The notes: generated from the letters alone by a model not told the origin. Shown: positions 1,370 through 1,590, counted from the stretch's first letter. The stretch is 64,000 nucleotides of DNA from Candidatus Micrarchaeota archaeon (GCA_043821365.1 JBDRCX010000006.1:320001-384000); one strand, 5' to 3'. A program made the numbers and translations.

Positions 1370-1590
1370 TGCCACGGGCCTGATTTGAACAAGCGACCCC
1401 ACCGTTTCCAAACTTTTTGAAAACATCATTGTTGCAAAACAACAATGCGCCCATAAAAACGATAGTTCGTTTTTATAGGGAAGTTTGACCGAACTGGGAT
1501 TCCAGTTAAGATACTTCAGCTTCACAGATTCTTTTAGTTAAAAAATTCCTAAAAGAAACAGGTGTGCTCTCCCAACTGAGCTACCGTGGC
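1370..1590 (-). tRNA. tRNA-Phe(GAA) with two introns: 30/31 (1560-1521, 40 nt) and 37/38 (1513-1406, 108 nt)
   Basis: Exons 1590-1561, 1520-1514 and 1405-1370 join to a 73-nt cloverleaf GCCACGG...CACCG-CTGAAGA-CGGTG...TTCAAAT...CCGTGGC-A. Intron 1 has a clean BHB central helix (CACA/UGUG, bulges CC|U and AA|G). Confidence 0.93.

Follow-up and report, generated by a model that had tools for sequence, protein, structure and literature searches.

Hairpin modules shared among the interrupted tRNA genes of a Micrarchaeota genome and their probable spread as mobile DNA

Families of intron sequence common to different tRNA species have been described in the Thermoproteales and read as intron transposition (Fujishima et al. 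2010, Mol Biol Evol 27:2233, as summarised in PMC4090602 and bioRxiv 10.64898/2026.10.13.758758), a transposition for which the summary in PMC4090602 gives no known mechanism, and a 2026 census of Asgard archaea reports no route of intron arrival (bioRxiv 10.64898/2026.10.13.758758). The Thermoproteales case, as these summaries present it, resembles the one described here in its host endonuclease of broad BHB specificity and in a gain that is thought to take place at the DNA level by an unknown mechanism, whereas it differs in the enzyme, which is (alpha-beta)2 there and epsilon2 here, and in the phylum, here the DPANN/Micrarchaeota. Compared with the same summaries, the introns reported below are built as mosaics from hairpin modules whose terminal units are inverted, these modules are also present outside RNA genes, and a second module is nested at a specific site and differs in its presence between near-identical strains. 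Candidatus Micrarchaeum acidiphilum ARMAN-2, of the same phylum, has heavily disrupted tRNA genes and an epsilon2 endonuclease (Fujishima et al. 2011, PMC3239211; structure 4fz2, PMC3488258); this endonuclease is homologous over its full length to the one found here, and the ARMAN-2 introns lie at many positions, including two in the T-loop. In contrast to the present analysis, PMC3239211 covers positions and splicing and cites transposition for the Thermoproteales only, and a term search of it turned up neither families of intron sequence nor hairpin repeats nor copies between genes. A search of the literature on Micrarchaeota tRNA introns, and on MITEs in archaeal tRNA introns, yielded no description of a hairpin-module family, and no Micrarchaeota report in which such copies lie elsewhere than in RNA genes or in which polymorphic insertions are nested. 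Transposition of tRNA introns is already known, and what is added here is its hairpin-module form in Micrarchaeota. The genus gives an unusually direct view of archaeal tRNA intron gain: its element is well delimited, with ends that can be recognised, and has copies in spliced genes as well as outside them; near-identical strains carry either the filled or the empty allele; and sister genomes run from those that lack units and have largely intact tRNA genes to those rich in units, in which standard software recognises almost no tRNA gene. Together, these features open the question of intron gain to comparative tests and, in co-culture systems, to experimental ones.

The window, meaning the whole stretch of 64,000 nucleotides that was analysed, is 320001-384000 of contig C6 (JBDRCX010000006.1) of the Candidatus Micrarchaeota archaeon assembly GCA_043821365.1 (G000), a genome of 1.20 Mb in six contigs with 36% G+C and 87% completeness. 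ARAGORN at default settings found no tRNA gene in the window and Rfam one of five (Leu-TAA only), which shows how badly the tRNA complements of such genomes are under-called by standard software. Genes were modelled with a custom cloverleaf dynamic-programming (CYK) parser, in which insertions are allowed at any place at a flat cost and the splicing motif is not used; the five tRNA genes of the window scored 60-69 against a background of at most 50, and removal of their introns gave a complete cloverleaf with all four stems restored. This motif-free parse reproduced the five gene models of a preliminary description of the window, the anticodon of the serine gene being GCT. Genome-wide, 45 tRNA gene models were obtained, a set to which several genes were added by hand and which may miss two or three; 39 of them are interrupted, by 62 introns at 15 model positions. 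The models of Pro-GGG (two T-loop introns), of a gene parsed as TAT and of Leu-CAA are imperfect, and the intron boundaries, taken from the same parser, may be off by 1-2 nt, for example in Leu-CAG.

The tRNA-Phe(GAA) gene occupies 1371-1590 on the minus strand (CYK score 67) with exons at 1561-1590, 1514-1520 (a 7-nt mini-exon) and 1371-1405, separated by a 40-nt intron at position 30/31 (1521-1560) with a strict central BHB helix of 4/4 and by a 108-nt intron at position 37/38 (1406-1513), whose central BHB helix is also 4/4. On the plus strand, tRNA-Leu(CAG) (7295-7429) contains a 52-nt D-loop intron, placed at 7318-7369 by the parse and at 7317-7368 by homology with intron-free orthologs, so that the junction shifts by one base; the boundary set by orthology gives a 4/4 central BHB helix (exon GGTC/intron GACC) between two 3-nt bulges. 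The other plus-strand genes are tRNA-Leu(TAA) (32786-32922; Rfam RF00005, 44.8 bits), with a 37/38 intron at 32826-32877; tRNA-Ser(GCT) (48882-49093), with a 130-nt 37/38 intron at 48920-49049; and tRNA-Trp(CCA) (62022-62196), with introns at 12/13 (62034-62046), 37/38 (62073-62108) and 58/59 (62129-62182). The Leu-TAA intron is a member of no family and is the contrast case inside the window; it holds CTGATG and CTTGAG motifs, which could be C/D-box-like.

It had been claimed that intron modules are shared between different tRNA genes of the window, and the strings on which the claim was built are all present: TTTTCAAAAAGTTTGGAA followed by AC at 1404-1423 (minus strand), TTTTTCCAAAAGTTGGAA followed by AC at 49032-49051 (plus strand), TCAAACTT at 1481-1488 (minus strand), TTTTAGTAAAAG at 7323-7334 and 62136-62147, and TTGAAACTGC at 1297 and 48955. 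As similarity above chance, however, these particular pairs did not hold. The level of chance was taken from dinucleotide-shuffled intron pairs, with a 99th percentile of 23, a 99.9th percentile of 27.7 and a highest score of 32 among 9315 shuffled pairs; an intergenic control, whose extreme tail was inflated by overlapping samples, gave a usable 99th percentile of 22. Local alignment scored the Phe and Ser intron ends at 23 and the Leu-CAG and Trp introns at 24, the likeness of the Phe 30/31 stem to the Leu-CAG and Trp introns, at 15 and 21, was rejected as evidence, and the 10-mer TTGAAACTGC of the Ser intron and the Phe trailer, which has 25 genomic occurrences and lies on the non-transcribed strand in the trailer, was given no weight.

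Stronger partners than those first cited emerged from all-versus-all alignment across the genome, in which 157 of 1863 intron pairs scored above the shuffled 99.9th percentile (1.9 expected) and 35 of the 62 introns had a best match above every shuffled best score. Scores above the shuffled maximum of 32 join 33 introns at 13 model positions into one network, which includes Phe 37/38 (48 with Glu-CTC 37/38; 42 with Val-CAC 56/57), Leu-CAG (53 with Asn 15/16; 49 with Val-GAC 37/38; 48 with Ala-TGC 18/19), Ser-GCT (55 with Ile 55/56; 50 with Pro-CGG 37/38) and Trp 58/59 (41 with Asn 37/38). Outside it lie Phe 30/31, Leu-TAA, Trp 12/13 and Trp 37/38; the Phe 30/31 intron matches no other G000 intron (best score 21) and is conserved in some congeners (score 54 against the copy in G016). 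Sharing in general was strongly confirmed and the cited partners were not, and the observation as first made is therefore partly confirmed, while its interpretation as transposition and nesting is supported by what follows. A separate family of two, unrelated to the hairpin unit described next, consists of the 56/57 T-loop introns of Gly-TCC and Pro-CGG (with AAATCTTCGCCGA; C2:13888-14010 and C3:74911-75219).

The sequence held in common has a core unit made of a covarying hairpin (stem-CTTTT(T)-loop-AAAA(A)G-stem) and the tail CAAAA(A)C. The hairpin has about five variable outer pairs, a near-invariant C-G pair, a T-run, a loop of 2-3 nt (GG, AGG, AGT or GGT) and an A-run, and the tail stands 0-3 nt after it, often followed by N5-TTGCTA. 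A covariance model of the unit (R1) recovered 56 copies in G000 at E<0.01, and in the window four matches at E<1e-4, all of them in tRNA introns: the 5' unit of Leu-CAG (7314-7351, plus strand; CCGCC-TTTT-AGT-AAAA-GGCGG followed by CCCAAAAC; E 2.3e-6), the 5' unit of Ser-GCT (48917-48952, plus strand; E 3.5e-6), the 3' unit of Ser-GCT, inverted relative to the 5' unit (49014-49051, minus strand; E 2.2e-7), and the 5' unit of the Trp T-loop intron (62127-62164, plus strand; E 6.4e-5). The Leu-CAG unit has copies of 30-40 nt with 94-100% identity throughout the genus, in many genomes. Units at intron 5' ends are in sense orientation and in all 20 cases begin within 0-5 nt of the 5' splice site, and long introns carry a second, inverted unit at the 3' end, which in 9 of 12 cases ends 0-6 nt from the splice site. 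Overall, sense orientation goes with the 5' ends (23 units) and antisense orientation with the 3' ends (12 units), indicating that orientation is set by the element and not by transcription and that the element is a quasi-palindrome with inverted ends; full elements have inverted units with CAAAAAC at both ends, that is, terminal inverted repeats, and additional hairpins lie between the terminal units, some of them recurrent, such as ATTTTCGC..GCGAAAAT.

Two counts indicate that the hairpin is maintained. Sites picked without regard to the stem (T-run/loop/A-run plus tail) are 74-76% paired at outer positions 1-4 against about 40% at sites without the tail, the pairing falls to background by position 6, and all four Watson-Crick types are common; the difference from tail-less sites speaks against a similarity common to all AT-rich hairpins of this genome. 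In the model-based alignment, 96.3% of cells are paired against 74.9% after shuffling, and 123 double changes were counted against 39.7 expected, a count that leans toward pairing as the units had been preselected for at least three outer pairs; none of 500 shuffles reached either observed value. Stems so varied and yet paired would fit selection on structure, possibly with old divergence, rather than recent bursts of copying.

Nesting, which had been suggested for the Phe 37/38 intron from the separation of its hairpin arms, was borne out by comparison of strains. The intron consists of a 50-nt ancestral intron and a nested two-hairpin module of 57 nt (1424-1480, minus strand), whose first hairpin, CCCTATAAAAACGA..TCGTTTTTATGGG, is conserved, whose second is variable and which terminates in ATG. 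The module splits a unit hairpin into a 5' arm (1481-1488, minus strand) and a 3' part comprising T-run, loop, A-run and stem (1407-1423, minus strand), which ends 1 nt before the 3' splice site. Both inner hairpins are exactly missing from congeners G002 and G014, where the intron is 50 nt long and equals the G000 intron without 1424-1480, and where TCAAGCTT and AAGCTTGG close an intact hairpin. A 1056-nt aquatic metagenome contig from a different study (X4) shows the same state, joining 1422 to 1481 with 58 nt skipped; its flanks have one mismatch over 1370-1422 (53 nt) and 13 over 1481-1700 (220 nt), and it is the empty allele in a close strain. Further copies of the module occur in G000 in the Glu-CTC intron and, on the other strand, in the Val-CAC 56/57 intron, and in G015 in the Ser-GCT intron and the T-loop intron of another tRNA, and in every copy the target lies between C(T/C)T and TTTT of one unit-hairpin arm, with the module always oriented the same way with respect to that arm. 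The copies end in ATG or TTG, with a second hairpin that varies from copy to copy, and show no visible target duplication. A sequence check found no BHB at the module borders, and an intron within an intron is thereby ruled out. A different two-hairpin insert stands at the equivalent place in the Cys T-loop intron.

Differential intron content was observed among the congeners. Across the Phe-GAA orthologs of 19 congeners, no intron is present in G004; a 37/38 intron alone, differing in sequence among them, in five genomes; introns at 30/31 and 37/38 in at least seven; and introns at 15/16 and 37/38 in G003. The 37/38 intron of the G022 Phe gene is identical at 47 of 51 positions to the Lys-CTT 37/38 intron of G000, and the best match of the G024 Phe intron is the G000 Ser-GCT intron. 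The D-loop intron of Leu-CAG is shared by G000, G006 and G018, and the orthologs in G004, G007 and G012 are uninterrupted. Between G000 and G015, the Ser-GCT introns differ in entire modules, which have repeated CAAAAAC and hairpin segments at their borders. Two features that mark transposed intron families of the Thermoproteales type were thus found: intron presence differs between orthologous genes of close relatives, and sharing across isoacceptors and positions exceeds the shuffled expectation. Spread of the modules over positions and tRNA species, as first proposed, is borne out by the 33-intron network, by this presence and absence and by the Phe and Lys introns, whereas the word "recent" in that proposal applies to the nested Phe insert only, since the outer units, with their differing stems, may be older.

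The units are concentrated in tRNA genes, which make up 7.4 kb of 1198 kb (0.6% of the genome) and yet contain 35 of the 52 units defined by regular expression in G000; five more lie within 120 nt of tRNA ends and the remaining 12, elsewhere, are mostly just upstream of start codons. One unit (C4:16866-16899) lies inside the 23S rRNA gene. This gene (G000:C4:15238-18605; L200) spans 3368 nt for 2706 model positions, with about 660 nt of intervening sequence, and the position of the unit within it indicates that the element also occurs in rRNA intervening sequence; the 16S and 23S genes stand on opposite strands of a small contig and are both cut by its ends. Some units adjoin the ends of mature tRNAs (G000:C6:696720-696905, 734170-734207, 717447-717583 and 474688-474725): those upstream of His and Ala-GGC are 1-2 nt away, and those downstream of His, Pro-GGG and Leu-CAA 1-4 nt. 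They face the tRNA as intron units face exons, which raises the question of a use in end processing. Across 120 genomes of the order, the unit is present in 11 of the 12 genomes sampled from the genus, in counts from 2 to at least 54, with none in G008, and most other genera have no copy or one, with a few exceptions. Across six related genomes including G000, the tRNA genes detectable with the standard model decrease with unit load, a trend and not a test: 39 in G008 (no units), 26 in G004 (2 units), 19-22 in two genomes with 6 and 30 units, and 3 in G109 (at least 54 units). With 3 genes detectable by RF00005 in a 90%-complete genome, G109 may have the most heavily interrupted set of the genus.

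Splicing signals were detected at many of the introns. Under the strict 3-4-3 BHB geometry, the central helix is 4/4 in 21 of 62 introns and at least 3/4 in 35, against 3.9% and 19.5%, respectively, at shifted positions of the same precursors, and a central helix of at least 3/4 together with an outer helix was found in 30 of 62, against 2.7%. About half of the introns, mostly those at non-canonical positions, fail the strict geometry at the parser boundaries, which may reflect relaxed motifs or boundary errors. In 37/38 introns, the last 6-7 bases are specific to the gene and pair with positions 32-35, with the element just inside them or overlapping. The splicing endonuclease of G000, a protein of 393 aa with PF01974 and PF02778, matches the ARMAN-2 epsilon2 structure 4fz2 from end to end (E 3.5e-132); its identity is 91% with the enzyme of an uncultured archaeon and 77-85% with the enzymes of MAGs labelled Candidatus Micrarchaeota or Bilamarchaeum. 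The host is accordingly a member of the Micrarchaeota (DPANN) with the three-unit epsilon2 enzyme of broad specificity described in PMC3239211, which cleaves relaxed motifs in vitro. Gene models and motifs together suggest that these introns would be removed by splicing. A second endonuclease-like protein of 163 aa (G000:C6:480404-480895; L002:1291-1782) has PF01974 at E 3.4e-12, with M. jannaschii EndA (1a79) as its best solved match (E 2.4e-9).

Probably, then, the tRNA introns are mosaics assembled from a dispersed family of short palindromic modules that are, or have been, mobilised as DNA and would persist in tRNA and 23S rRNA genes through their removal from the RNA by the epsilon2 endonuclease. 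The basic unit is the 9-10-bp hairpin (variable outer stem, invariant C, T-run, purine loop of 2-3 nt, A-run, G) followed by CAAAA(A)C, and the full element has one unit at each end, inverted, around further hairpins. The unit hairpin, abutting the splice site, could serve as the helix beside the cleavage bulge and thus take part in splice-site definition, with short gene-specific tails pairing with exon bases and so completing the BHB motif, and the second module (57-60 nt, two hairpins) inserts site-specifically into the T-run of a unit, without target duplication, as in Phe 37/38. Movement as DNA is favoured by the intergenic copies, by an orientation independent of transcription, by the nested insertion within a stem and by a search of the 87%-complete genome that gave no reverse transcriptase (RVT_1 domain). 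Part of the mosaicism is probably due to recombination between dispersed copies, the Ser-GCT intron of G000 being distinguished from that of G015 by entire modules. We tentatively raise the further possibility, less likely than the mosaic reading itself, that the elements are archaeal "introners", whose terminal hairpins would supply the helices beside both bulges, so that an insertion could be spliced at once or after few changes and new BHB introns would arise in tRNA and rRNA genes; if true, this would account for an intron load that runs from almost none to nearly every tRNA gene between sister genomes.

Bacterial REP/BIME/REPIN elements are mobilised by RAYT (Y1 HUH) transposases. The modules resemble them as short imperfect palindromes with a conserved foot, often in inverted pairs and dispersed in non-coding DNA, with compensatory stem variation and no target duplication, and differ in that no RAYT-like gene with flanking units was found in G000, whose single Y1 transposase is adjoined by unrelated GC-rich hairpins, and in their concentration in spliced RNA genes and not in intergenic DNA. 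With MITEs and eukaryotic "introners" (e.g. PMC11282704) they have in common a non-autonomous element with inverted ends, whose insertion is tolerated through splicing, and an intron number multiplied in some lineages and not in their sisters; here, however, a protein endonuclease acts at the BHB instead of a spliceosome, with no target-site duplication and no known autonomous partner. The nested module is like the IS200/IS605-derived palindrome-associated elements (PATEs) in that hairpins lie near its two ends, its target is oriented and sequence-specific, the target is not duplicated and the genome encodes a Y1 TnpA, and unlike them in that its first hairpin lies at the very end, its second is not conserved between copies and its similarity to the TnpA flanks is a single 8-bp stem. 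The transposase genes found in G000 were one IS200/IS605 Y1 TnpA (C3:96659-97006) and a TnpB fragment; the hairpins flanking the TnpA gave no match to the AT-rich unit, and the ends of both are unlike the units, so that, among the transposase families searched, no cognate autonomous element with matching ends was found in this genome. No target-site duplication was visible at the Phe nested insert, between filled and empty Leu-CAG alleles or at the intergenic copy C6:717447-717583, so the element is not a classical DDE-type MITE. The modules therefore behave like REP/BIME or MITE repeats and yet fail membership in both, for want of RAYT association and of target duplication. A double hairpin upstream of TnpA recurs at C6:58027-58068 near tRNA-Ala-CGC (36 of 41 identical), and one 8-bp stem of it is found again in the insert nested in the Cys T-loop intron, at a score of 25-30 where shuffles reach at most 23; with that single stem as its basis, a tie between the nested module and IS200/IS605 ends may be taken as a lead only. 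The TnpB fragment (Cas12f1-like TNB domain; G000:C6:553800-553997), with a 137-aa open frame, lies between tRNA-Gln(TTG) and tRNA-Val(CAC) and had been parsed, wrongly, as a tRNA of low score.

Four other explanations were weighed against DNA-level movement. Chance or convergence, with AT-rich hairpins arising independently in each intron under BHB and composition constraints and without common descent, would accommodate the four pairs cited at the outset (scores 15-24, inside the shuffled range), the low complexity of the T-run/A-run core and the need of the last 4-6 bases of 37/38 introns to pair with the anticodon loop; it does not explain the excess of 157 pairs over 1.9, a CAAAA(A)C tail tied to hairpin formation, 94-100% identical copies of 30-40 nt in many genomes, the near-identity of Phe and Lys introns, or a unit that fits 52 sites in 2.4 Mb (both strands) with 35 of them in tRNA genes. 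Chance similarity is refuted for the family as a whole, for which it is scarcely credible, and survives for two items alone, the stem of Phe 30/31 and the 10-mer TTGAAACTGC. Another reading, in which the hairpins are functional RNA motifs (splicing-helper or protein-binding hairpins, or intron-borne small RNAs) inherited vertically in ancient introns, selected and immobile, agrees with the covarying stems, the placement of units exactly at splice sites and the high conservation of unit sequence between genomes. It is nevertheless unlikely, given presence and absence at orthologous sites among congeners, a copy number from 0 to at least 54 within one genus, the intergenic copies, and an orientation set by the element, which would give RNA with GGA loops at one end and UCC at the other.

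Spread at the RNA level, by re-insertion of excised introns into pre-tRNAs through reversal of the endonuclease and ligase, reverse transcription and recombination into the genome, would account for module ends that coincide with splice sites, for the lack of target duplication and for positions that are the usual BHB-permissive ones. We consider it highly improbable, as no reverse transcriptase domain was found in the genome, as copies occur in intergenic DNA and adjoining start codons, and as the nested module sits within a hairpin stem with borders that lack a BHB. Homologous recombination or gene conversion between pre-existing dispersed repeats, without transposition, is a somewhat better candidate though still rather unlikely as the sole process: the exchange of whole modules bounded by CAAAAAC/hairpin repeats in the Ser-GCT introns of G000 and G015, and the lack of a transposase linked to the modules, speak for it, but it leaves unexplained the de novo introns at new positions (Leu-CAG D-loop, and Phe 15/16 in G003) and the precise, oriented target of the nested module. 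Movement of modules as DNA is thus retained as the probable route.

Two further arrangements of hairpins were observed. A further family of dispersed hairpins, (C)TTGAACG-N5/6-CGTTCAA(G), was found in 34 copies against about 1.3 expected, at 7246-7261 of the window and at 33 other sites, for example in tandem at C6:72463 and 72517; it is mostly intergenic, but some copies lie within introns (Asp, Cys, Val-CAC) and next to the sole Y1 transposase. The 64-nt leaders of Leu(CAG) and Ser(GCT), at 7230-7294 and 48818-48881 of the window, are near-identical in layout and largely so in sequence, with ATTTTAAC..GTACTTGAA-hairpin-TTCGCGAAAATTC..GAATTTTCACGAT immediately 5' of +1, and by this likeness appear to be a common two-hairpin leader or promoter module.
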